Assembly (NCBI GenBank): GCA_964459995.1
Contig: CAYWOR010000009.1
Location: 36,891 to 100,890 of the forward strand
DNA length: 64,000 nucleotides
Source: an uncultured bacterium
GTDB lineage: Bacteria; UBP14; UBA6098
Reading direction: 5' to 3'
Part shown: positions 31,804 to 57,116 of the stretch, one piece after another
How positions within the stretch are numbered: position 1 is the first letter of the stretch
Layout: every line of letters starts with the position of its first letter
Made by a program: the position numbers and the translations under genes
Notes under the pieces: model-generated
Database searches by the model: none
Seen by the model: the letters and a program-made list of their open reading frames with translations, nothing else
What the model was told of the DNA's origin: nothing

Positions 31804-34800
31804 TTAGAACTTCAGTTCGACCCAAATGCTTACATCTCGAACATGTGTGATCTGTTCGATTCTGCGGTTGTTCGTGTCTATCCATTTTAATTCGAGACCG
31901 CCGCGAATATTTCTGCTGAAATTGTAACTTGCCGAAGGTGTTATGCTCCATTCGACATCGTCACGGGAGCGAGAAACCTCGCCGGTGGCTCCTTCGACCC
32001 ATGATTCTGTGATACGTGTGGTGTTTTGAACAGTAAGAGACAAAGTAAGCTGGTTCTCGAATTTCAGAGTGCCAATAATCGGAAGCTTGAATCCTTTCGA
32101 GCCGCGAATGGAATATCCTGCTGTAATTTTGTGCGACAGCTCGTAGTTATGACGAATATTTACCGATGTTGCCGAATAAGTTCTCTCGTGTGAATTGCGG
32201 AGGTTCGTCGAATAATCGGTGCTGATTCCGGGTTTCCATGTCATGTTTATGGACACGAGCGGATTGAAGCTGTGCGTTAAGACATCGTTTTTAAGGGCAT
32301 TAGATTCATAATTCTCGCGGACTTCATAAGAATAATTAGAATTCGCACGGGCGTTGCTCGCGAGTGTTTTAAATGGCGGAATCTGTCCGAGACCGTTCCA
32401 GTTAAGGGTAACATCCGGGAAAGTAGTTTGGATCTGTTTTGTATTGTTTGTGCTGATAGTAACATTTTTAACGTAATTGTATCTCGCCTGCAAAGTCATT
32501 TTGAAAGGTAGGCGCGTGCCGGTGCGGATATTCCTCTTTTCAGTCGTAGTATGGCTCTCTATCTGGCTTGTAGCGGCAAGAGAGTCAGTAACTCTGTGAA
32601 CACCGGGGTCGGTTGTCAATGAAAGTTGATACCACAAATCAGGCCTTCCGGCGAGATTTGGTATTTGACGGCGATCGTCGAATTGCCAGTCGAAATTCAA
32701 ATCGTCGAGATTGTCGAAAAGAGGTTTTGTAATAGCAAGAGCTTTTTTAAGTCCGCCTGTGGATTCACGAGAACCTGATGGCGCCGGCTGTTCCGGAGTA
32801 GGGGGTTCTTCTTCACCTTGCCTGCCGCCTCTATCTCGCGGAGTTTCCCTTCGAGGAGGCATGGGTGACGATCCGGAAGTTGTTCCGCCGATTGCGCTTC
32901 CAAGCTGTTTCCACTTTATCCCCCACGAAGCTCTGAAAGAGCGGTTTAAGTTCACCACTCCGAACCTGTCGCGATATCTCGCCGGATCGGTATCCTCTTT
33001 GTATTCGCCGCGGATTTCGTAGTTTTGCGAGAGCCAGGATATCATTGCCGGTGTATATCGAACATTTTGGCTGATAGATTTTGACAGGGGATTGCCAATC
33101 ACAACCGGATGTCTCCATCTAAAATGGGCTGAATCGCCGATATCGCGTTTCATTGAGAGAATAAAGCCGGTGGTAATCGGGGGCATGATATTTGTGTTTA
33201 GCGTCGCTGTGTGTGTTAGCGATTTTTCGTTGCTGTATGTTCGCGTATCATATCGGTCGAATCGCTCTTCCTCGCGACCGGTAAGATTTGTTTCAAAACG
33301 TAAGGCTGTTGGAGCGAAATTCAGCGAAAGGTCGAGTAATCTCGGAACCGAGGGGTCTTCGATTCTCGCGCCGGGTCTCGATGGTGTGCCCTTTGGGGGC
33401 GATATTGGCGATGAGGGTTTTCCCTCTACCGAATCGACTTCGGTGCGTTCATCGTCCTTTTTATCCGCGAACATCCATCGAGTTAGATGGACATTCCAGT
33501 TTTTAGAAGTCGGCGTGAGATCATAAGTCTGCCGAAGGTTCCAATTTCTGCTTATACGAAGTGGATATGTCGGGCTAATCTCACGGGTTTCTCCGGCGCT
33601 AACGCTATGAGAAAGCCTCGAAAGAGTAAGACCTATCAGCCAATGCGGATCGCGAGGTTTTAAGGTCTCGGTTATGTTCACCGAATACTGCTTGGTAGTA
33701 GTAGTTTCCTGCTGACGAAGCGTATCCGGAACGCTGATGTCCGAGCCTGTTTTAAGTCTTGGAACGGAGATTCGCCGAGAGAAATTGGAAGACACAGGCA
33801 GATTCAGCCCCCACCTGTCAGGGGCGAATTTGTGTGGCTTGAAACCGCCGGAAAGGCTTAGCACCGTTTCAGTCCTTCCGGTGCCCACTCGCTCGTTAAG
33901 GCCGTGGAATTCGCTATCTTTACGTTCGAGAGTTCCGCTAAAATCGGCGAGGTCGGCAAAATTCATCGAGAATGTCGCTTTTTCCGCCCAGCCGGGTTCT
34001 TTGCGGACATTTGTAACGCGAAGCTCATCGACCCAAATCTCACCGGAAATTGGACGGAATCGGTAGGGATTAATAACACCCATCTCAAAATAACGAACAT
34101 CGGTCAAAGTGGGGGAGCCGTTGATAATATACCAACCGTTTTCCGTTCGATAGATTGGATCGATGTTTGGTATGCTCGTATCAGAGATTGCAGTCTGATA
34201 TTCGTTCTTGAAGGCTGTCATCTCGGGGAAATCCATCATCACCCTGTTTGATTCGACCCAGCCGTCCTGAAGGTAAGTTCTGTATTCGTATGTATTATTA
34301 GCATCCCTGCCGAGTTTGAAGAAGAACAAAACCGAATCGTCGCTGACATGCTTGTTGAAATAAACCCACATATCGAGCGCTTGATAGAGAGTGAGATCCA
34401 TCGATTCGCCCGCGAAAGTTGTGCGGAAACACGAAGCGACAGATTGGCCGGGAACTTTGTCATAGAGTATCGCAAGCGATTGCTCCTGGCTCATAATGCC
34501 GGTTGTAACAGAACGCTCTCCGGTAACACCGGGGGGTGAGACATAATCGCCGTCTTCATGAGTATTTTTAGTGGCGATTTCGATATTGGCGGTTTTCTCT
34601 TCCCACTTATTTCCGACAAGCTCGATTTGGGCAATCTGAATTTTCGAGTATCTTTCGACACCATCCACCCAAATTCGAGAATATCTGATCCTCTCCCAAT
34701 CCGGCGAACCTACTTCCTTCCGCCGATGAACCTTGCCATCTGGGTTATGAGTATAAACAGAGTCCTGAATAGGTATTCGATACAGCCTCCAATATTCGTC

Positions 34801-37800
34801 TGTGCCGTCCTCGACAATATTACGCGTGTTGGGCACCTCGAATTCGGAGCTTGAAAGATCGATTGTGAACTCGAAATAGTCGTTATTAGTATCGAGGAAA
34901 TTGTTGCCGTTGAGGTCTTCGGTATCTGGCTTTGTTCCGCCTTCGGGGTCTCTGCCGTTGCCTTCAGTGCCGTTGATTTTAGAATAATCGTTCGGATTAT
35001 CTTTGCTCCAGTGCCAGTTGTCGCCGTTAGGGTCTGGATTGTTCACCGGATGGTATCCAGGTTCGAGGCTGTCGGGAAGGCCATCGAGACCTACATCCTC
35101 GGCGGCGCTTAGGATGCCGTCGCGGTAACCTGCGACTTCGAGGTCTTCCGAGTTCAGAACGCCGTCGCCGTTTATATCCTCGTTTATCGAGCCGAAATTA
35201 AAGTGCAGATGTCCCTCATTTCCGCGCACCCAGACTTCGAGGAATCTCGATTTGCTCTGGTCGTGGTAGCCGGTGGTTATATATCTCATAACACCAGCCC
35301 ATTTATCTGTTCCACCGCCGACAGAATCCGGGTCGAATTCCAAAACGAGGACATTGGTTCTCGAATCTTCGGTTGCTACGTCCTTCTGAGGCCATATCTC
35401 CTTCACTGCGACCTTGTCGTAGGGATTATACCAAATTAGGTGCCCGCGATCATCCTGTGTCTTTCCCTGTGGTGCGGAGGATTTTTTCCATGCTGTTCGA
35501 CGAATTTCGAGATTGAAAGTGCTTCTCGACCCTTCAAAATCGTCGATATAAGCCTCGTCCTTTGTGTTCGGATTGCTGATAACCTGCGCAACTTCGGCTG
35601 TGAAACGTATCTTCGATGCTGACTCGGTATGAATTAGGGGGATAGCATTGACCGCATCCGTAATGAATGGCACTTCATAGTCGAGCTGAAGGTCGGCATC
35701 CCAAATGAAAGCCTTGCCGGGTTCACGCCCGATTCGAGGCCTGCGCTCTGCGCTCGATGTGGATTTGTAAATAGCTGTTCCGCCGATCCAGCTTTGTTCG
35801 CCGAAACGATATTCGGCTCTTGCTCCGAGAAGAGCTTTCTGTTCCGGCATGAAGAAAGGCTCGTAATCGAAGTCTATAGTAAGCGTTGTATTGGGGTTTA
35901 AAGCTTCATCGTTGAGGAACGTGATCTGCCCGATTTGATAATCCACACGGTAATCTATACCGCTTTGAAGCCTTCTTCCGCCAAGTTTCACAATTTCGGA
36001 ATTCTCGATAATATTAAATCTGCCGAGGCTCATAGGATTCTGACGCTGTCCGGTTTTCAAACGAATGATGTATTGATGATCCTGTGCGATTTCTGAGCTT
36101 GTCGATGAGGTATACATCGCGCGGACTCTGGGTGTGTTCGGCCCAAGATTCATGCGTGTTGAAGCCATTTCGGCTTCGCTCGGATTAAAAGGATGGAGAA
36201 CGGGAAAAATCAGATGGCCGTCTTGCGGATTAACCATGACCGCATCAACTCTGCCATCGGATTCGTAATTTCCCATTGTGTTAAGCTCGTCGAGACCGAA
36301 AACTTCGAGGAAATTCCTCGGCGGCGATTGTGTTGTATCGCTTCTAATATCGTTTGTTACTGGATTTAGGAATATTTCGACTTCGAGATTATCGGTGTTG
36401 ATGTTTGTCGAACTTAGATAATAGACATTGCGCCAGGTTTGTTCCCAGCAGGGGTTGTTCGACCTCATCGCCGGCGGTCTGATTAAATTTAGCTGTAAGG
36501 TTGTGTCTCCGGATGTCGGGTCGATATACAACCCTCCGACCGTGTCCTGCGTGCCGTCCGCGCGGCGTATAATGTAACTGCATGCGATAGCGTGGTTGTT
36601 GCTCAGAGGATTCGACCCGGTCATATAGAACCATCCGAGCCTTCGGTAAATCTGATAATACTCTTGGCTGATTGTGTGGAAATAGCCTCTGTGACCGACA
36701 TCACTCACATATGGATCGCCGGGATTGGGCATCGCAACACCTTCTATCGCGCCATTTGCGATATTATTCGACGAAATTTGGTCGTCCACCCAAAGTGTGA
36801 ATTCGACGATGCTGTCGCCGGCCATATATGGGTTTGCCGTAACAGGCCAAACGAAGGGATAAATGAAACTCGAATCTATCCAAAAATAGGTCAGGTCGAG
36901 GTAATTATATTCTCTGATGTCGGTCGGTTGTGTAGATGTGTTGCCGGTAATTGTGGTTGTTTCGTGTTGGCCTTTTTCTTGGCTTGCTATGGCTGTTATC
37001 GCCCAATCGCCGATCTGAAACTGGCTCTTAATGCCGAAAAGCCCTTCGACCCTCTCCGAATAGCCCACGAAAGTCGCACCGGGAAGCGAAAGATTTGTGT
37101 TTCCCGCTTCGATTTTCTGGATTATATCGTCCTCTTCGCCGGTAAATGCAATGTTGATAGTATTCTCGAGGTCTGTTTCCCTTTTCGAGTCCTGATCGAC
37201 CGTAACACTTATCTTGCTTCCGATAGTTCCGGTAATCGTGAAACGGCTTTCCTGCTCCATCTGAAGGCTTGGAAACTTGCTCTGATTTGGCCCGAATTCC
37301 TGTCCGGTAATCCATGTGCTTCTGCCGGAAAGGGTTATGCGGCGATATCCCGATACACGAAGCCCCGCGCCGCCCTCGCCGATGATGTCACGCACCCCTT
37401 TTGGAAAATCGATGGGAATCTCGAAACTCAAGCCGTCCCTTCGAGCTTTTGCTTCCTCCTTTGAGCCTTCCCATGCGTTATTGCGCCAATATCTATTGGC
37501 CATGAACAGCTTGAATTGATCAATGGGAACTACTCTCGAGGCATATATCTGCCTGTCGAGAACCCACTCGTCAATAACAACAAAGCCGTCGCCCCAGAAT
37601 ACGACCGCAGAATATCGATGATTAAGGGTCGAATAATCTAATAAAGCCAGCGTAGTGTCAGTTTCGCCAATTCCGGAGAAATCATATAACCCCGGCTGAA
37701 AACGATTTTCGAGGGGGAGGAAGAATCTGCCTTCCTGATGCAGGGAAATATCGACGCCTTGCGCGAAAATTCCGGCGGGAACAAGCGCAAAGAGTAACGC

Positions 37801-41875: not shown

Positions 41876-41904
41876 TTGACAGTTTGAAAATACGCGTATA
41901 TTAT
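41876..41904 (+). promoter_or_regulatory. sigma70 promoter of lexA (TTGACA-17-TATTAT)
   Basis: TTGACA at 41876-41881 and TATTAT at 41899-41904; ~30 nt upstream of the lexA ATG, with a GGAGG RBS. Confidence 0.6.
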
Positions 41905-41908
41905 GCAT

Positions 41909-41922
41909 AGAACAAATGTTCG
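41909..41922 (+). promoter_or_regulatory. putative LexA operator (Cheo-box-like AGAACAAATGTTCG, GAAC-N4-GTTC)
   Basis: An inverted repeat of GAAC/GTTC arms 4 nt apart, immediately downstream of the -10 element of the lexA promoter; matches the Gram-positive-type SOS-box consensus CGAACRNRYGTTYC. Confidence 0.55.
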
Positions 41923-41935
41923 CATGGAGGAGAAT

Positions 41936-42541
41936 ATGGCCGAAAAGCTTACGAAACGTCAAAGTGAAGTCCTTCAAGAGATTAAATCGCATTATCGCCG
42001 CGAAAAAATCGCACCGAGTGTCCGAGAACTCGCAGAAAAGCTCAAAATTACACCCTCGACAACTCACAAACTTCTCAGAATCTTACAGAGCAAAGGTTAT
42101 ATTGAGCTTAGGGACAATATTTCCCGCGGGATTGTCCTTCCAAAGGCGGTTTCCGGGAATTCCATACGGGTTCCGGTTATCGGAAGAATTCCCGCCGGAA
42201 ATCCGGTTCACGCTGAGGAGGTCTTCGAGGGGCATATCGAGATTGACCCGGAGCTTGTTCCACGAGGCGAACTGTTTGCCCTTAAGGTTATGGGAGACAG
42301 CATGATAGGCGCTTCGATTATGGACGGCGACACCGCAATTATTCGACATCAGGAGGATGCCGATTCGGGAGAAATAGTCGCGGTTGCAATAGATGGCGAG
42401 GCAACTCTGAAGCGTCTCAGAATTAACGATTCGAGGACATTTCTTCATCCGGAAAACACAGATTTTTCTCCTATAGAACTTAGTCCCGAACAGGATATAC
42501 GGATTTTGGGCAAACTGGTGGCTGTTATTCGCAAATATTAA
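41936..42541 (+). CDS. lexA: LexA repressor (S24 peptidase family)
   Basis: N-terminal winged HTH (SVRELAEKLKITPSTTHKLLRILQSKGYIEL); A-G cleavage site in IPAGNP; catalytic Ser in VMGDSM and catalytic Lys in EATLKRL. Confidence 0.9.
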   Translation: MAEKLTKRQSEVLQEIKSHYRREKIAPSVRELAEKLKITPSTTHKLLRILQSKGYIELRDNISRGIVLPKAVSGNSIRVPVIGRIPAGNPVHAEEVFEGHIEIDPELVPRGELFALKVMGDSMIGASIMDGDTAIIRHQEDADSGEIVAVAIDGEATLKRLRINDSRTFLHPENTDFSPIELSPEQDIRILGKLVAVIRKY

Positions 42542-42642
42542 TGAAAAAACCAAAATCAAACTTGAAAGAGGAGTAGAAAATACCTATCATAAATTGATAT
42601 TAGGTCTTGGCTAACCGCTTTTGACGTTCGATTGAGGTCACA

Positions 42643-43239
42643 ATGCCACGGTTCAATAACCTGACTACTTATAGATGCGATTTTCCTTCCGCAGTTAGAA
42701 TAGTCCTTATACTTATGCCCCTTATGCTCGTATTTTCTCTATTCGCGCAGGAAGCGACCGCGCCTTTCGAGATCGACGTTACGGTTAATTATATCGATCT
42801 CGAGCTTCGGACGACCGGCGGATCTCCCTATATCGCTTGGTGGATCAGCATGGTTGGAAGCGGCGACACGGTCGGAATGGAACTTGGCGAAGTAGTTCAT
42901 TTGATAAACCGAAGCAATGTGAATGTCGATCTATATTCTACGATCATCGATTCTCCCGACAGTGCTTCGTCCGATACCCTTTGGCCAGTTTGGGAAGTTG
43001 CACCCTTTGGAGGTCACGATTCGATTGGTTTCCGATGGGCGAGCTTAATCGACCTTCTGATTCCACCTTTTTCTACTGGGCAGACGATTCTATCTTCCCC
43101 AAGCCTCGTGGAGCTGACAATCCCATCGGCAGAGAATAGATACCTTTATGGATGGTTTATCGCGCCCACAGAGGGCGAGCCGGGAGAACGACACAGATTG
43201 TTATCGACAATTACTTTAACACCGGCAATGGTGCCATAG
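42643..43239 (+). CDS. small secreted hypothetical protein (paralogue 1 of a TVTVN(Y/F)I(D/E) family)
   Basis: 198 aa; signal peptide (cleavage near FAQEA); shares the N-terminal block FEIDVTVNYIDLELRTTGG with the next gene; no recognised domain. Confidence 0.5.
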   Translation: MPRFNNLTTYRCDFPSAVRIVLILMPLMLVFSLFAQEATAPFEIDVTVNYIDLELRTTGGSPYIAWWISMVGSGDTVGMELGEVVHLINRSNVNVDLYSTIIDSPDSASSDTLWPVWEVAPFGGHDSIGFRWASLIDLLIPPFSTGQTILSSPSLVELTIPSAENRYLYGWFIAPTEGEPGERHRLLSTITLTPAMVP

Positions 43240-43273
43240 ATTTGTTTTGTAAAATCCAAATAGGAGGAGAAAA

Positions 43274-43828
43274 ATGAAAAGAGCTATGTTAATCGGGTTG
43301 TTTGCGATACTCGTCGCGACGGCAAGTTTTGCTCAAGTAACCGATGATTTCACAATTACTGTAACTGTGAACTTCATCGAATTCCAGCTTATGACTGCGG
43401 ATAGCAGTGGAGCCTATCCCGGATGGGCGGTCGGCAACATGAACGAGGGAGAAACGGTTGTAATGACCACCGGCGGAGGCGGAGATCACATCTATGTTAA
43501 GAACCTCAGCAATGTTCCACTCGATTTCAGCGCATACAGTAATTCACCGGCACCGGCTGGGTGCGGATACGGAACCCCCACTGCTTGGAATCCCGGTGCG
43601 GCCGCCGGAACCGACATCTATCTTTTAGAGCTTGGTAAAGGCGCGGCTGGAGTGGTTCCCGCTACATACACAATCATCGACGGAACAAACATCGTGTCTT
43701 CGGACCTTTACTACACGACAATTGCGGGGGAAAGCTACCATATGTATTCGAGATTCACAACCCCAATTTCCGCGAGCGACGGTTGTCCTCATAACATAAC
43801 AGTTACAATCGTTGCGGCTACTCCCTAA
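43274..43828 (+). CDS. small secreted hypothetical protein (paralogue 2)
   Basis: 184 aa; signal peptide (SFAQV); block FTITVTVNFIEFQLMTADSSG homologous to the previous gene; Gly/Thr/Ala-rich. Confidence 0.5.
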   Translation: MKRAMLIGLFAILVATASFAQVTDDFTITVTVNFIEFQLMTADSSGAYPGWAVGNMNEGETVVMTTGGGGDHIYVKNLSNVPLDFSAYSNSPAPAGCGYGTPTAWNPGAAAGTDIYLLELGKGAAGVVPATYTIIDGTNIVSSDLYYTTIAGESYHMYSRFTTPISASDGCPHNITVTIVAATP

Positions 43829-43854
43829 TCGAATTCCAAAGCTTGGTTCGAATA

Positions 43855-43884
43855 CGGCAAGTCTGCAAAGGCTTGCCGTTTTTG
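43855..43884 (+). terminator. rho-independent terminator (CGGCAAG...CTTGCCG + TTTTT)
   Basis: A 7-bp GC-rich stem followed by a T-run directly after the paralogue-2 stop. Confidence 0.7.
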
Positions 43885-44059
43885 TGGGATACATTCGATA
43901 TCCCATCATTTCCACAAGCCGGCGCGCACTTTTTCTCGCTTGCGATTTGTTTTTTTGCAGATTACTTTGCTTCTCAGTTGAAAGAATAACATCTCGTTAT
44001 GTGATTGCGTGGATTATCGGCTTTTCCAGATAACTAAAATTCCTAACTAAGGTGAAAAA

Positions 44060-46293
44060 ATGAAGAAGATCCAAATTTTGTTTGTGGCCATTATAAGCCT
44101 TTCTCAAGCGGTTTTGGCGCAGAGTGTAACAATGAACATCCCCAAAGATCCGATAGGTATTGCCGAGGATATTATTGCCCCGGTCTATGAGATCAAATCA
44201 CCGGAAACTACCGATTTGCATCGAAGATTTCACATGATGACTCCGCTGGATTCTATTTTTATCGAGGTTGTTCTGCCGCCCGGGGCTTATGCGGCGATTT
44301 ATGTTGATGTAACCGCCGAAAGCATCGCCTATTGCAACCCCCCAGAGTTACCATTGGACAGCGCGATGAAATATTGGGTCGAACACTCTCCATATGGCCT
44401 AAAGCTTCAGCTCGAGCAGAACCTCGCCGCTCTAAATCCTTCTTACTATTCGATTTATGACGATTTGCTCCGCAGTGCAGATCCTCTTTGGCGCGATGAA
44501 ATTCTCTATTGCCTCGCTCATCTTGCCCGCGAGATTCTCGAACTGCCGGAGATGAGTTTTCTTCTCGATGAGAATGTTCGCGGAATATATGCAATGGATT
44601 CTCTGCTTTCCTATGTCGAGATTATCGACCTTGGCACTCCGGGAGGAGGCGATCATCGCACAGAGGCGCATTATCTCACAATAGACACGGGCATGGTAGG
44701 ATATGAGACGATCGTCTTGGATTCCGAGATGTATTATCGATATGTCATGTTCCCTAAAATAACCGACGAGATTCCGGGATATATCGAACCGCACACCGGC
44801 GACAGAATCGACCCTTGGTATGGCTGTTTCTGGCGGACGTGGTTTTGGGATATCGAGGAAACAATCGGAGGGACTTATTATTGGCCGCTTGGAGATTCGC
44901 TTTGCCGTGTTTCGACGCTGTGGAGCGGTATTTTCAATAATGCCGCCGATAATGGTGCTGTCGGAGTGGTTACCTCATGGATTCAGAACAGTCTCGATTT
45001 CGATTCAGATGCCGAAAGACCGCATCAGCCGGTTCGAATCTACGCAAAACACAAAGGAAGATGCGGCGAACACGAGGATATAACTGTCGCCGCGGCACGA
45101 ACCGCGCTTCTTCCGGCGAGAGGCATCGAATCGATCAGCACCGACCATGTTTGGAACGAATTCTGGACAGGATGGCGTTGGGCGGGTTGGGAACCGGTCA
45201 ACAACTATGTCGATCATCAGTGGGTCTATGCCGACGGCTGGGGAAAAGAGTTCGCGACAGTGTATGAACATACCGGCAAAGGTAGAATGGAGCCGGTTAC
45301 AAGAAGATACTCCCATGAAATCGCGGAGATAAACATCACCGCGACAGATGCAGTCGGAAGACCTGTCGATGGTGCAAAGCTTATGATTGCCGCAGAAAGC
45401 GGGACATCTATTTATTACGACTGTATTCTCTTCACCAATAGCAGAGGCAAAGCCAAAGCGGTCGTCGGTGACAACAAGCATATGTATTACAGAGTTGATT
45501 CTGAGATTGGATGTAATCCCGAACCGGGGTTTGTGTCGAACCTTGTTACAAATACGATGGACGGAATCGTTTACAGCCGGACAGCCTCGATTCCTGGGAA
45601 TATGCCATATCACACCTATTCTTTGGCCGACAGCACAGATTCTCCGACTGCATATTTAGGCGCGCGAGTTCGACCGGTTGGTGAATTCATCGAGTATGCC
45701 GCACCATTCGATGATATTTTAGCGACATATTATCACTGGGAGGATGATGCCTACGGCTACGCCCTATTCGCTCTCACAGAGGACCAATTCCCTATTTTCG
45801 AGTCAGGAGGGGATTTCGCCGCTTTGATTATGCATGAGCGTTGCGACTTCGCTTCTTTCGAGATTCCGGTCGAAAATAGCGGTTATTGGATTGTTCTTTC
45901 CAATCGTGAGAATGTTAAGAATACCCTTGTCGGCGAATTGGCGGTAATGCTCCATCGGACTTCGTCAGGAATACCCTCGACGGAAATGCCGGTGAATATC
46001 TCTCTCGGTGCATATCCGAATCCTTTCAATTCCGCGGTTAAGATTGTTATCGAGGGGGGGCGGATTTGAAGAAAGAGGCCATAACGATTGAAATCTGCGA
46101 TATAACCGGACGAAAAGTAGATGAGATTAGAATATCCGGTTCGAATTTCGATCCTGCCTTTGGGGCTTCTCGAAACGGAGGCAATCTCGAATTCATATGG
46201 CAACCTTCGGAGTCAACACCCTCGGGAGTTTATCTAATTCGTGCGAAGATCGGCAAAGAGACACATACCAAACGCGCGATATTATTGAGATAA
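44060..46293 (+). pseudogene. secreted transglutaminase-like protein with T9SS C-terminal sorting domain, interrupted by a -1 frameshift at a G7 homopolymer
   Basis: Signal peptide; transglutaminase-like core (HKGRCGEHEDITVAAART...DHVWNEFW). The CTD begins ...YPNPFNSAVKIVIEGG in the 44060..46069 frame and continues EAITIEICDITGRKV...VYLIRAKIGKETHTKRAILLR in ORF 46066..46293. One extra G in the 46054-46060 run restores a single ORF. Confidence 0.7.
46054..46060 (+). repeat. poly-G (G7) homopolymer at the frameshift site
   Basis: GAGGGGGGGCGG seen directly; G8 would give in-frame ...IEGGADLKKEAITIE... Confidence 0.9.
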
Positions 46294-52762: not shown

Positions 52763-55700
52763 TTGTTGTATAACGCAATTATTTCAAATAGGTTATCTTG
52801 ATTATTTCGGAGTTTTCACTCGATTTGATTTTAACCAGATATATTCCCGAACTGAGCGTTTCGTCCGGTCTCCAGCTGACAGAATGGCGATTTGAACCCC
52901 CACTCTTGTTATCGTCCGCGCAAAATTCTCCTAATAATAACCCGTCAATTTTTTTGCCGGTAATATCGAATATTTCAACACTCCCATCCCTTAACCCACC
53001 ATTCTCGATTTCAATTCGCACCGAGGAATTGAAAGGATTCGGATAGGCGGAGAGACGTAACTCGCCGGGAAGAGGCGAATTTTCTTGAACAACGAAGCTC
53101 CAGGCATTCACGGCACCGGGTGTGGCTTCAAGACAAATTTGCCATGTTGCGCTTCCATTTGGATAACGTCCCCAACTGCTGTCTCGGGGCATATCTGCCC
53201 ATGAAACCGAGTCGCAAAGTGTATTGCCATAGAAATCCGGCCCGAATAGCGCGACCTCCTCGCGGTCGGCATCGAGTTTGAAACTTGCATGAAGCGGCCC
53301 CTGCTCGGCGTCGTTGTCAGCCCAGATAAGTAGATAACTATCAGGGGCGATAATCGTTCCATTAGGGAGAGTCCATTTACGCGGTTCGGTTATGTCATCA
53401 GTCGCGAACCAGAAAGACAAATCCACCGCCGTATCCGCCGGATTGTAAAGCTCGAACCAGTCGTCGAATTCCCCCTCCTCGTCGGAAATGGTCGTCCCGT
53501 TCGATGCCATGACCTCATTAATTAACACAGCACCTGCGACATCGACGGCATCGCAGGGCATGAGAACGGAAGAGATGTATAATCCTCTATCGTAGATGAA
53601 GTCCCTAAGCCCGGGAATAAGGCCTCCACCGGGGGGAGGGCCTCCGCCGATATCGTCGTTGAGGTTAGTCTCGAAGTTGGCGTTGCTATACATCTTGTTC
53701 GGATCGGCGTAAACATAGGGGCGGACTAAATCCGCGAGTTCTGTTACTCTGTCCGAGAAAGTCGAGTATTCCAGTGTTGTCGATAAAAGTTCGTGCAAGG
53801 CGCAATGGACTAATCTTGTGAAAAGAGGGTAGTCGCTGAAAAGCCTTTGAGCCAGAGGCCTGTTCGATGAATGCCAGTCGATTGCGAGGTTGCGCATCGC
53901 TGTGCCGTTCATGCCCATAGCGAAAACGCCGAAAGCTTCGTTAATATCCCAAACGATATATCTTCCGATGCCGTCGGAATCGAAATATAGATAGTAATTA
54001 TGTCCCGAACCCTGATAGCTGTCGAGGTTCACTAAGAATGTGTTCGCCGCCCACATTCGAGCGAAACTGAACATGTCGAACCAATCGTGCATTCCCGCCC
54101 GAAAATCTACCGCAGATGTATTATTGATGAAATTACAGAACCCGACGAGGTCGCTCCAATCGTCGATATCCTCGTTTGTAGATTTCTCGTAACGGGTTCT
54201 ATATGGCCCATCCGTAGCGCCAAGCCACTCAAAGGTGCCGCTTGGGTCGCCTTTATAAAGATTAGCGTCGTTTTCTCCGAAAAAGCGGGTTAACGCGTCT
54301 TTATTGATAGGATCGACAACAGTGTAAAACCCCCAATAAGTATCGTTATAGTAAACAACAGCCCATGTCGCACGAGGACATGGCACACCGAGACCTCTGA
54401 ATATCTCGCTCGCAAGCTTCTCGCGAAGGAATGTCGGGTCTTTGAAACAGTTATTGAATGTCAAACGCTCGTTGCCGCGGTATTCTCTTCCGCCGATATA
54501 TTCGTCGATTTTGAGATGAAAGGGCTTTTTGTTCCCCGGATGTCCGAAAGAGCTGTTGCCTTTGAGGCGAATTCCCACGCTGTCCAATGTATCGACAGCA
54601 TCGAAAACGACCTTGCACATCATGTATTCTTCGGTGGTATGTGTGGCGTAAAGCTCTGTCCAATAGCTGGGATTATCGAAGTAAACATGAACGGTATGGA
54701 CGGTATCGCCAAAATAATCCCCGAATACAGATGAAATAAATAGAAGGGAAAATAAGGCGACTAAGAATGAATATATTTTTCCGGCTTTCAACATTTGAAG
54801 CTCCAATTGTTGTATAACGCAATTATTTCAAATAGGTTATCTTGATTATTTCGGAGTTTTCACTCGATTTGATTTTAACCAGATATATTCCCGAACTGAG
54901 CGTTTCGTCCGGTCTCCAGCTGACAGAATGGCGATTTGAACCCCCACTCTTGTTATCGTCCGCGCAAAATTCTCCTAATAATAACCCGTCAATTTTTTTG
55001 CCGGTAATATCGAATATTTCAACACTCCCATCCCTTAACCCACCATTCTCGATTTCAATTCGCACCGAGGAATTGAAAGGATTCGGATAGGCGGAGAGAC
55101 GTAACTCGCCGGGAAGAGGCGAATTTTCTTGAACAACGAAGCTCCAGGCATTCACGGCACCGGGTGTGGCTTCAAGACAAATTTGCCATGTTGCGCTTCC
55201 ATTTGGATAACGTCCCCAACTGCTGTCTCGGGGCATATCTGCCCATGAAACCGAGTCGCAAAGTGTATTGCCATAGAAATCCGGCCCGAATAGCGCGACC
55301 TCCTCGCGGTCGGCATCGAGTTTGAAACTTGCATGAAGCGGCCCCTGCTCGGCGTCGTTGTCAGCCCAGATAAGTAGATAACTATCAGGGGCGATAATCG
55401 TTCCATTAGGGAGAGTCCATTTACGCGGTTCGGTTATGTCATCAGTCGCGAACCAGAAAGACAAATCCACCGCCGTATCCGCCGGATTGTAAAGCTCGAA
55501 CCAGTCGTCGAATTCCCCCTCCTCGTCGGAAATGGTCGTCCCGTTCGATGCCATGACCTCATTAATTAACACAGCACCTGCGACATCGACGGCATCGCAG
55601 GGCATGAGAACGGAAGAGATGTATAATCCTCTATCGTAGATGAAGTCCCTAAGCCCGGGAATAAGGCCTCCACCGGGGGGAGGGCCTCCGCCGATATCGT

Positions 55701-56679
55701 CGTTGAGGTTAGTCTCGAAGTTGGCGTTGCTATACATCTTGTTCGGATCGGCGTAAACATAGGGGCGGACTAAATCCGCGAGTTCTGTTACTCTGTCCGA
55801 GAAAGTCGAGTATTCCAGTGTTGTCGATAAAAGTTCGTGCAAGGCGCAATGGACTAATCTTGTGAAAAGAGGGTAGTCGCTGAAAAGCCTTTGAGCCAGA
55901 GGCCTGTTCGATGAATGCCAGTCGATTGCGAGGTTGCGCATCGCTGTGCCGTTCATGCCCATAGCGAAAACGCCGAAAGCTTCGTTAATATCCCAAACGA
56001 TATATCTTCCGATGCCGTCGGAATCGAAATATAGATAGTAATTATGTCCCGAACCCTGATAGCTGTCGAGGTTCACTAAGAATGTGTTCGCCGCCCACAT
56101 TCGAGCGAAACTGAACATGTCGAACCAATCGTGCATTCCCGCCCGAAAATCTACCGCAGATGTATTATTGATGAAATTACAGAACCCGACGAGGTCGCTC
56201 CAATCGTCGATATCCTCGTTTGTAGATTTCTCGTAACGGGTTCTATATGGCCCATCCGTAGCGCCAAGCCACTCAAAGGTGCCGCTTGGGTCGCCTTTAT
56301 AAAGATTAGCGTCGTTTTCTCCGAAAAAGCGGGTTAACGCGTCTTTATTGATAGGATCGACAACAGTGTAAAACCCCCAATAAGTATCGTTATAGTAAAC
56401 AACAGCCCATGTCGCACGAGGACATGGCACACCGAGACCTCTGAATATCTCGCTCGCAAGCTTCTCGCGAAGGAATGTCGGGTCTTTGAAACAGTTATTG
56501 AATGTCAAACGCTCGTTGCCGCGGTATTCTCTTCCGCCGATATATTCGTCGATTTTGAGATGAAAGGGCTTTTTGTTCCCCGGATGTCCGAAAGAGCTGT
56601 TGCCTTTGAGGCGAATTCCCACGCTGTCCAATGTATCGACAGCATCGAAAACGACCTTGCACATCATGTATTCTTCGGT
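52531..56679. repeat. period-2044-bp direct tandem repeat (about 2.03 units; essentially identical except 2 mismatches near the 5' ends of A/B)
   Basis: The sequence at x and x+2044 is identical across 52779-54635 vs 54823-56679, and near-identical for 52531-52778 vs 54575-54822. Duplicated antisense ORFs sit at constant +2044 offsets in the ORF track. Confidence 0.85.
52779..54806 (-). CDS. CotH-kinase-family protein with LTD and T9SS CTD (paralogue B; chimeric: A-like 5' end, C-identical body)
   Basis: 675 aa; the first ~65 codons are near-identical to paralogue A; the remaining ~610 codons are identical to paralogue C. Confidence 0.75.
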   Translation of the reverse strand: MELQMLKAGKIYSFLVALFSLLFISSVFGDYFGDTVHTVHVYFDNPSYWTELYATHTTEEYMMCKVVFDAVDTLDSVGIRLKGNSSFGHPGNKKPFHLKIDEYIGGREYRGNERLTFNNCFKDPTFLREKLASEIFRGLGVPCPRATWAVVYYNDTYWGFYTVVDPINKDALTRFFGENDANLYKGDPSGTFEWLGATDGPYRTRYEKSTNEDIDDWSDLVGFCNFINNTSAVDFRAGMHDWFDMFSFARMWAANTFLVNLDSYQGSGHNYYLYFDSDGIGRYIVWDINEAFGVFAMGMNGTAMRNLAIDWHSSNRPLAQRLFSDYPLFTRLVHCALHELLSTTLEYSTFSDRVTELADLVRPYVYADPNKMYSNANFETNLNDDIGGGPPPGGGLIPGLRDFIYDRGLYISSVLMPCDAVDVAGAVLINEVMASNGTTISDEEGEFDDWFELYNPADTAVDLSFWFATDDITEPRKWTLPNGTIIAPDSYLLIWADNDAEQGPLHASFKLDADREEVALFGPDFYGNTLCDSVSWADMPRDSSWGRYPNGSATWQICLEATPGAVNAWSFVVQENSPLPGELRLSAYPNPFNSSVRIEIENGGLRDGSVEIFDITGKKIDGLLLGEFCADDNKSGGSNRHSVSWRPDETLSSGIYLVKIKSSENSEIIKITYLK

Positions 56680-56826
56680 TTCGTGGGTTTCATAAAGTTC
56701 TGTCCAGAAACCTGAGTCGTCGAAATAGACTCGCACGGTATGAACTGTATCGCTAAAATAGCTCGCTTGTGCTGTTAGAATTGTTGAAAATGCAAATAGG
56801 ATAGCGAATTTGAAGAGCTTTCTCAT
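54823..56826 (-). CDS. CotH-kinase-family protein with LTD and T9SS CTD (paralogue C)
   Basis: 667 aa; its own signal peptide (MRKLFKFAILFAFSTILTAQA); CotH blocks (KDPTFLREKL...VYYNDTYWGFY, HNYYLYFDSDGIGRYIVWDINEAFG); LTD; CTD ending IIKITYLK. Confidence 0.75.
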   Translation of the reverse strand: MRKLFKFAILFAFSTILTAQASYFSDTVHTVRVYFDDSGFWTELYETHETEEYMMCKVVFDAVDTLDSVGIRLKGNSSFGHPGNKKPFHLKIDEYIGGREYRGNERLTFNNCFKDPTFLREKLASEIFRGLGVPCPRATWAVVYYNDTYWGFYTVVDPINKDALTRFFGENDANLYKGDPSGTFEWLGATDGPYRTRYEKSTNEDIDDWSDLVGFCNFINNTSAVDFRAGMHDWFDMFSFARMWAANTFLVNLDSYQGSGHNYYLYFDSDGIGRYIVWDINEAFGVFAMGMNGTAMRNLAIDWHSSNRPLAQRLFSDYPLFTRLVHCALHELLSTTLEYSTFSDRVTELADLVRPYVYADPNKMYSNANFETNLNDDIGGGPPPGGGLIPGLRDFIYDRGLYISSVLMPCDAVDVAGAVLINEVMASNGTTISDEEGEFDDWFELYNPADTAVDLSFWFATDDITEPRKWTLPNGTIIAPDSYLLIWADNDAEQGPLHASFKLDADREEVALFGPDFYGNTLCDSVSWADMPRDSSWGRYPNGSATWQICLEATPGAVNAWSFVVQENSPLPGELRLSAYPNPFNSSVRIEIENGGLRDGSVEIFDITGKKIDGLLLGEFCADDNKSGGSNRHSVSWRPDETLSSGIYLVKIKSSENSEIIKITYLK

Positions 56827-57116
56827 AGCTGTATCCTTTTCAAAGTCTCATTGTTTCAATGTGATAAAGCCTCGGCGGCTCTATCAATATTAGGACTTCT
56901 TTTTTCAATTTAAGTTTAGTCATCTTTTTTAAAAACTCATATTTTTTTAACAATATGTTAACAAAATTGAATAGTCAAATGACAACATTTATCGAATTGC
57001 GTTTCTTCACGATGTCTAAGTCTATTTCCCGCTTGATTATCCCGCCTATATCGATATAATATTGTCAAGTTGCGTCGGTTTGGCCGATGCAGTGAAATAG
57101 ATGGATTGGAGACGAT

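Follow-up and report, generated by a model that had tools for sequence, protein, structure and literature searches.

Two paralogous secreted proteins downstream of lexA

We analysed a 64,000-nucleotide stretch of DNA (hereafter the window) from an uncultured bacterium (GTDB lineage Bacteria; UBP14; UBA6098), which corresponds to positions 36,891 to 100,890 of the forward strand of contig CAYWOR010000009.1 in GenBank assembly GCA_964459995.1. In this window, an autoregulated lexA gene is followed on the same strand by two small genes, here termed P1 and P2, an intrinsic terminator and a gene for a transglutaminase-core protein. P1 and P2 belong to a rare protein family that may build a strand-complemented fibre or complex at the cell surface. 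The organism encodes SprA and cargo proteins of the type IX secretion system (T9SS) and is therefore a diderm member of the Fibrobacterota–Chlorobiota–Bacteroidota (FCB) group. The coordinates of the features are collected in Table 1.

P1 and P2 are separated by 34 nucleotides (nt), and a strong ribosome-binding site, AGGAGGAG, precedes P2. Read from their sequences, both proteins start with signal peptides of the n-h-c type that end in FA/Q (the slash marks the predicted cleavage site). The signal peptide of P1 comprises residues 1–35, with predicted cleavage at LFA/Q after A35, and that of P2 residues 1–20, with predicted cleavage at SFA/Q after A20. Glutamine at the first mature position is common among signal-peptidase I substrates of the Bacteroidota lineage. 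The two proteins share an N-terminal block, which covers residues 42–60 in P1 (FEIDVTVNYIDLELRTTGG) and residues 26–46 in P2 (FTITVTVNFIEFQLMTADSSG). BLASTP aligns P1 and P2 with 29% identity across 180 residues (E = 5e-12). As this similarity spans the full length, the two proteins are true paralogues and have more in common than an N-terminal motif.

A preliminary description of this locus, made from the DNA alone, had listed two open reading frames (ORFs) on the plus strand with signal peptides, a common N-terminal block and a terminator behind the second gene. All of these are present, and the paralogy that it proposed extends well beyond the block. Its characterization of the remaining sequence as Gly/Thr/Ser-rich holds as an enrichment, albeit a moderate one: these residues make up 32% of mature P2 and 27% of mature P1. 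Both proteins are acidic, with no lysine in mature P1 and only two in mature P2. The cysteine pair of P2 (Cys97 and Cys171) co-occurs across the family, in 18 and 17 of 77 sequences, respectively; such joint gain and loss fits the pattern expected of a disulfide in an exported protein.

A rare family without annotation at the sequence level

A word-indexed search of 5.8 billion proteins returned ten close homologues of P2 and seven of P1, none of them annotated. A hidden Markov model (HMM) of both subfamilies matched 81 clusters at E ≤ 1e-3 among 1.84 billion cluster representatives, nearly all of them 170–195 amino acids (aa) long. The genomes with matches are those of uncultured bacteria labelled Zixibacteria, UBP14 or simply 'bacterium'. 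For conservation analysis and structure modelling we used an alignment of 77 members; the search for loci was run with a 17-sequence alignment.

Neither P1 nor P2 matched any Pfam or NCBIfam model, and the 77 aligned members gave nothing meaningful against these models even at E ≤ 10. Against PDB sequences, no match of the family profile was better than E = 0.2; the two chance matches were a nanobody and PknD, neither of which is a fibre subunit. Our literature search found nothing relevant on this family, nor on SOS-linked fibres in these phyla. At the level of sequence, the family is undescribed and new to the databases. This bears out the earlier statements that the proteins have no recognizable domain and form an undescribed family, and no homology to a well-known family emerged from the Pfam, NCBIfam and PDB-sequence searches. 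The search of cluster representatives adds that the family is rare.

Weak matches were also seen. Tandem proteins with CotH and lamin-tail domains and a T9SS tail, encoded on the minus strand of the window (52782–54827 and 54826–56847), match the family HMM at E of about 1e-4, which probably reflects generic similarity among Ig-like and lamin-tail domains. A tblastn search gave a weak match to a giant Haloarcula plasmid protein (E = 2).

Predicted fold and conserved N-terminal strand

Structure prediction had been suggested in the preliminary description as a check. With the 77-sequence alignment, AlphaFold modelled P2 as a confident all-beta sandwich, with a mean predicted local distance difference test score (pLDDT) of 94.6 and a predicted template modelling score of 0.81. 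With the 17-sequence alignment the pLDDT reached only 43.5, so that only the model made with 77 sequences was usable. When this model was compared with the PDB using Foldseek, the top eight matches were all subunits of fibres held together by donor-strand complementation: CS20 pilin, three CsuA/B chains (two from the archaic Csu pilus and one from the CsuC–CsuA/B complex), the Sulfolobus 0406 thread, TLP-1b, TLP-1a and the Hyper2 (DUF1102) tube. The eighth match had a probability of 0.77 and the other seven 0.97–1.00. Caf1, FimI/FimA and PapA came next. TasA and TLP were among the matches that aligned over the greatest length (138–139 of about 164 residues).

The most conserved part of the family lies at the N-terminus. 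Residues 26–35 of P2 reach 2.74 bits, compared with a family mean of 1.72 bits across the 77 sequences. Hydrophobic fractions along the block alternate as 1.00/0.05/1.00/0.03/1.00/0.01/0.99, and near-perfect alternation of hydrophobic and polar positions spans residues 26–39. The block begins five residues past the predicted mature N-terminus. In the P2 monomer model, DSSP assigned no sheet partner to residues 18–36, and the first strand within a sheet comprises residues 37–40. At the opposite end, P2 stops three residues past its last strand, HxITVTIxA, which is the third most conserved window. The domain as a whole is about 160 aa long and has two near-invariant Trp residues; W51 lies outside any strand in the model. 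Taken together, the features of the block and of the core suggest a donor strand placed ahead of an acceptor domain.

Large proteins carry the domain at their C-terminus

Five multi-domain proteins bear the family domain at the C-terminus, with HMM matches starting at profile positions 19–44. They comprise an S8 peptidase, a beta-helix protein, an IPT-repeat protein and two others (Table 1). In the S8 peptidase and the beta-helix protein (loci L015 and L027), roughly the last 140 residues form the family domain; its core starts at the equivalent of residues 35–40, and unrelated sequence takes the place of the N-terminal block. The fusion proteins look like tip subunits, which would need only to accept a strand.

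A conserved gene cluster around the pair in relatives

In relatives, the pair opens a conserved order of seven genes: P1-type, P2-type, a secreted protein of ~281 aa, a protein of ~170 aa, a protein of ~144 aa, a small cupin and a DUF1573 lipoprotein. The ~170-aa protein carries a signal or anchor at its N-terminus and a transmembrane segment at its C-terminus, the ~144-aa protein is a multi-pass membrane protein, and the DUF1573 lipoprotein contains a PapD/HYDIN-like immunoglobulin (Ig) domain. The P1-type gene precedes the P2-type gene in L010, L011, L012, L015 and L027, and the split into the two types is old.

The 281-aa family is the universal partner. It adjoins family members in 11 non-redundant loci (from L001, L002, L005, L007, L008, L010–L013, L015, L017 and L027), of which ten contain two members and one, L017, a single member. 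The most distant loci (L013, L015, L017 and L027) are included. Its distant members score above the thresholds of the Pfam models FixG_C and fn3_5, a sign that the partner has two Ig-like domains. The partner profile matched no PDB sequence. We also considered that the partner might be built from the same domain as P1 and P2, and rejected this (hhalign probability 2%). In L015 and L027 the order is extended at its front, to a large protein with the C-terminal domain, the P1-type gene, the P2-type gene and the 281-family gene.

In the organism studied here the cluster is probably split. A locus that holds only the second half (L023; also L024 and L025) lies downstream of MacB/OEP efflux genes. 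Tetranucleotide frequencies of the L023/L024 locus correlate with those of the window at r = 0.97, a value close to that of a contig known to come from the same organism (0.987), compared with 0.76–0.89 for relatives. This near-identical composition suggests that the genome probably carries the remaining five genes at a separate site.

The strong terminator behind P2 in the window (43854–43879; extent to 43886 in Table 1) has counterparts elsewhere. Strong terminator-like hairpins lie directly 3' of the P2-type gene in L010 (6770–6793; Zixibacteria) and L011 (8561–8585; UBP14), where they overlap the start of the 281-family gene and may, as attenuators, tune how much subunit is made relative to accessory protein. 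A terminator at this position would fit higher expression of the two small proteins than of the accessory genes. Major pilin genes are known for being expressed more highly than their accessory genes.

A possible strand-complemented fibre or complex

We propose that P1 and P2 are the subunits of an as yet undescribed fibre or complex at the cell surface that is held by strand complementation, and regard the chances of this reading as about even. In it, P1 and P2 would be the two small structural components of a system that uncultured FCB-group bacteria assemble in the envelope or at the surface. Each subunit would be exported by the Sec pathway, cleaved at FA/Q and folded as an Ig-like or jelly-roll beta-sandwich, with its amphipathic N-terminal strand, F-x-I-x-V-x-V-x-[FY]-I, left free. 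The strand of one subunit would enter the sandwich of the next by donor-strand complementation. By such strand donation, we infer, the subunits would polymerize into a fibre, or at least form a strand-swapped hetero-oligomer of P1-type and P2-type subunits. The secreted 281-aa two-Ig protein is a candidate chaperone, adaptor or anchor. In the distant systems, the large enzyme or adhesin with its C-terminal domain, encoded ahead of the pair, would follow the logic of a fibre tip or cargo.

The preliminary description had offered three possible roles. Structure prediction and gene context favour a pilin-like or fimbrial role or a matrix role; a toxin or bacteriocin role found no support, since the fold is not toxin-like and no immunity-like or lysis gene was recognized.

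P1 and P2 might instead be ordinary exported Ig-like modules for binding, adhesion or scaffolding, which exchange no strands and whose N-terminal strand is simply the first strand of the fold. This leaves unexplained why a segment without a sheet partner is the most conserved part of the family, and why unrelated sequence replaces it in at least the S8-peptidase and beta-helix fusions. It also does not account for members always occurring in pairs of P1-type and P2-type, accompanied by the same partner gene, or for best structural matches that are almost all donor-strand fibre subunits. We consider this explanation unlikely.

Several observations weigh against the proposed strand-complemented assembly. 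The N-terminal segment has a pLDDT of 85–97 although it is unpaired, and on account of these high values it may pack onto its own domain. In three of the fusion proteins (L017, L026 and P0062), a weak alternating pattern is retained ahead of the core. The five partner genes are absent from the 64-kb window, as judged by tblastn and HMM searches. Sequence comparison connected the family to none of the pilin, TasA and WxL families. Finally, no usher, PapD-family chaperone, SipW-type peptidase or outer-membrane export component was recognized in the clusters, which leaves the exit of a fibre from a diderm cell unexplained.

Comparison with known strand-exchange systems

The likeness to chaperone-usher pilins, especially the archaic and alternative types (CsuA/B, CS20/CS17/CfaB/CooA, Caf1, FimA/PapA), extends from the best Foldseek matches to the predicted build of the subunits: they are small beta-sandwiches exported by Sec, the last strand closes the fold, and ahead of the fold stands an N-terminal extension that is conserved and amphipathic. 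The gene arrangement likewise resembles that of pilus operons, which encode several paralogues as well as tip proteins whose pilin domain lies C-terminal to functional domains. In sequence, however, P1, P2 and the 77 members match no fimbrial or pilin family (Fimbrial PF00419, SCPU PF05229 and similar), and precomputed and fresh Pfam scans of the cluster genes recognized neither a PapD-family chaperone nor an outer-membrane usher. The accessory genes also differ from those of chaperone-usher systems, encoding the 281-aa two-Ig protein (which has no PapD-family match), two membrane proteins, a cupin and the DUF1573 lipoprotein.

A second group of similar systems comprises the TasA superfamily (TasA/TapA, AbpA, the S. 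acidocaldarius 0406 thread and CanX/DUF1102) and TLP-1a/b, which have jelly-roll or Ig-like subunits that are often paralogues encoded side by side. TasA, threads and cannulae use the donor-strand principle without an usher (PMC12518558), and TLP-1a/b form fibrils from pond water, of unknown bacterial origin, that are held by donor-strand exchange (PMC11494351). Like the present family, TLP-1 stems from environmental bacteria that are uncharacterized. We found no TasA-type sequence similarity, with no match to Peptidase_M73 or any other Pfam model and none to PDB sequences, and no SipW-type signal peptidase adjoins the pair in any locus examined. Unlike the TasA superfamily, the present family is hosted by diderm FCB-group bacteria.

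By cluster grammar, the closest known system is the WxL/Csc cluster of Firmicutes. These clusters encode two small WxL proteins, WxLIP (DUF916-DUF3324) with its two Ig-like domains, and a large protein that ends in a WxL domain (PMC10599100, PMC9772566), and insertion of a WxLIP strand into WxL has been predicted (PMC10599100). What the two systems have in common, namely a pair of small proteins consisting of the domain alone, large proteins that end in it and a partner with two Ig domains, is a matter of organization and is not evidence of homology. It raises the alternative of a WxL-like surface platform that does not polymerize, in which P1 and P2 form a heterodimeric base on the cell envelope, the 281-aa partner stabilizes this base by inserting a strand into it, and domain-fused enzymes or adhesins are displayed, an arrangement like that proposed for the WxL/Csc clusters of Firmicutes. 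The parallel in cluster grammar, down to a beta-helix protein among the large carriers (PMC10599100, PMC9772566), speaks for such a platform, as do the domain length of about 160 aa with two near-invariant Trp residues and matches to WxLIP_PGBD/DUF916 that fall below the threshold (E = 8e-4 and 7e-3) in two of eight 281-family proteins. By contrast, no family member matches the Pfam WxL model (PF13731) even at E ≤ 10, and W51 is not in a strand of the model. The partner, read from its sequence, has no C-terminal transmembrane helix, the clusters contain no LPXTG protein, and the hosts are diderm (SprA/T9SS), so that a peptidoglycan-bound platform would be periplasmic. We hold this platform to be improbable, to about the same degree as the ordinary Ig-like modules.

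Homology to WxL and WxLIP was tried directly, with comparison sequences gathered from Firmicute plasmids. Both comparisons were negative, with hhalign probabilities of 14.7% for the family against a 7-sequence WxL alignment and 4.8% for the partner against a WxLIP alignment, which leaves a resemblance of organization only. In the course of this comparison, pairs of WxL and DUF916-DUF3324 genes proved common on Firmicute plasmids, with 283 plasmid records matching the WxLIP query. One such pair lies on Bacillus anthracis pXO1 (L034, 4325–6086), and further pairs are found in L028 and L030–L033.

As far as primary structure can tell, P1 and P2 thus fall outside the chaperone-usher, TasA and WxL systems by every sequence-based measure and also by their accessory genes. 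If the pair polymerizes as a strand-complemented fibre, it would add a new sequence family and a new accessory gene set to the short list of donor-strand fibres, which comprises chaperone-usher pili, TasA-like fibres, archaeal threads and cannulae, and TLP-1. Such fibres would then be placed in diderm candidate phyla without cultured members, which raises the question of how a fibre of this kind is assembled and exported without an usher. The family would also be a candidate against which 'discover first' cryo-EM studies of environmental fibrils could match their structures. The WxL parallel, with its small domain-only proteins, C-terminal-domain cargo and two-Ig partner, suggests a general design, one that may have arisen more than once.

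Table 1 Positions of the features described, in the window unless a locus is named
Feature	Position	Strand	Description
lexA promoter-like site TTGACA-17-TATTAT	41876..41904	+	11/12; counterpart in L001, L002, L005, L008 and L012
LexA (SOS) box GAACAAATGTTC	41910..41921	+	Directly behind the -10 hexamer
lexA	41936..42541	+	TIGR00498, 1.9e-57; likely start ATG 41936 behind GGAGGAG; 201 aa
Promoter-like site TTGAAA-17-TATCAT	42562..42590	+	In the lexA–P1 gap; candidate own promoter of P1–P2
P1	42643..43239	+	198 aa; P1-type family member; A2 HMM, E = 2e-50
P1 N-terminal strand FEIDVTVNYI	42766..42795	+	P1 residues 42–51; conserved, amphipathic; proposed donor strand
P2	43274..43828	+	184 aa; P2-type family member; carries the Cys97/Cys171 pair
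P2 N-terminal strand FTITVTVNFI	43349..43378	+	P2 residues 26–35; most conserved 10-residue window; proposed donor strand
Intrinsic terminator ending the P1–P2 unit	43854..43886	+	11-bp stem and T run; strong
S8 peptidase with C-terminal family domain	L015 3-3050		1015 aa; directly upstream of a P1-type/P2-type pair
Beta-helix protein with C-terminal family domain	L027 1-2619		At least 872 aa; directly upstream of a P1-type/P2-type pair
Other multi-domain carriers	L026 2510-3466; L017 3-812; protein P0062		Family domain at the C-terminus
Second-half-only locus	L023 8001-11065 (also L024, L025)		300-aa 281-family gene, 167 aa, 148 aa, cupin, DUF1573

lexA and the transcription of the pair

The lexA product scores 194 bits against TIGR00498 (cut-off 111) and contains the domains LexA_DNA_bind (PF01726) and Peptidase_S24 (PF00717). 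Its start is probably ATG 41936, because the SOS box would fall inside the longest ORF (start 41903). Among relatives, a 201-aa product is called in L001, and gene callers chose 212 or 205 aa in other samples. Five relatives carry one or two copies of GAACAAATGTTC at the lexA promoter, and this conserved box makes autoregulation of lexA well supported, as the preliminary description had it. The pattern GAACNNNNGTTC occurs in the window only at 41910, in the lexA promoter, and at 31807. The second match (GAACTTCAGTTC, 31807–31818), at the 3' end of the 2009-aa sprA gene, is consistent with chance, since 30 of 100 shuffled sequences contained at least two matches.

P1 starts 101 nt after the lexA stop, and no canonical terminator was found in this gap in any of the six lexA-linked loci, in agreement with the earlier observation of a gap of about 100 nt without a terminator. 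The earlier finding that the gap has no SOS box of its own likewise stands: the LexA box is confined to lexA promoters and was found neither in the gap nor elsewhere in the clusters of relatives. A consensus scan revealed what had been missed before, namely sigma-70-like sites (TTGAA[AT]-16/17-TAnA[AC]T) in the gap of all six loci. Besides the site in the window, these are TTGAAA-17-TATAAT in L001 and L002, TTGAAT-16-TATACT in L005, TTGAAT-16-TATAAT in L008 and TTGAAA-16-TAAACT in L012. The background of the scan is roughly 0.8 sites per kb and strand and the gaps are 90–240 nt long, so by a rough estimate matches in six of six gaps are unlikely to arise by chance. The preliminary description had named an independent promoter together with a terminator in the gap as evidence that would disconnect the pair from lexA; of these, a promoter-like site is present and a terminator was not found.

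Linkage of the pair to lexA is restricted to one clade. In L010, a Zixibacteria metagenome-assembled genome (MAG), the cluster lies away from lexA and has hslVU upstream. In L011, a UBP14 MAG, it likewise lacks lexA; hrcA-grpE-dnaJ and a small membrane gene are located upstream, and TTGAAA-16-TAAATT precedes P1. The adjacency is best seen as lineage-specific synteny, with no evidence in these sequences of SOS control. Most likely, the pair is transcribed from its own promoter in the gap and transcription stops at the terminator after P2.

SOS induction, which the preliminary description had put forward and which made the locus appear unusual, is the weakest part of that account. In the corresponding explanation, P1 and P2 would be secreted effectors, either a toxin or bacteriocin or an extracytoplasmic division inhibitor similar to YneA or SosA, co-transcribed with lexA and released after DNA damage. 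Small exported division inhibitors under SOS control are known beside lexA in Gram-positive bacteria. Like such lexA-linked genes (YneA/SosA/ChiZ), the pair adjoins an autoregulated lexA and encodes exported products; it shares the strand of lexA at a distance of 101 nt without a canonical terminator in six loci, and in L005 the adjacency persists although a different gene lies upstream of lexA. Unlike them, it has no LexA box and does have a recurrent promoter-like site, and the cluster also occurs away from lexA (L010 and L011). Furthermore, the pair belongs to a structural-looking cluster of seven genes in which immunity and lysis genes are absent, the predicted fold does not resemble that of a toxin, and a mature beta-sandwich of 160 aa is unrelated in size and fold to the known single-helix division inhibitors. 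We consider SOS-induced effectors very improbable.

Some read-through from a derepressed lexA promoter may occur, given that none of the six gaps holds a canonical terminator. The fullest version of the fibre proposal would combine this with the other elements: a donor-strand fibre of a hitherto unknown type, made by diderm bacteria of uncultured FCB-group phyla without usher or PapD-family chaperone, with alternating P1-type and P2-type subunits, protease or beta-helix-adhesin tips in some lineages and, in the clade of the window, expression boosted by lexA read-through, so that DNA damage would trigger the making of matrix or fibre. This combination as a whole is a long shot.

Further observations concern the gap itself. 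The RNA of window positions 42530–42650 is predicted to fold with −23.4 kcal/mol (z = −2.3 relative to shuffled sequence) and has no U tract; it could be a leader structure. An Rfam scan of the window identified no RNA family. By eye, a short motif, AAACGATAG or AAATTGATAT, is seen right after the -10 hexamer upstream of P1 in the window, L001 and L002, and also upstream of the 281-family gene of L023; we draw no claim from it.

The neighbouring transglutaminase gene

The preliminary description had noted a secreted transglutaminase behind the pair, and a transglutaminase-core domain and a T9SS tail are indeed encoded there. In the window the gene (44060–46293) is split into ORFs of 669 and 75 aa, the shorter of which contains the T9SS type A sorting domain. 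As other assemblies of the same organism (L020–L022) contain a single 744-aa gene, the split reflects a frameshift or an assembly error near 46066.

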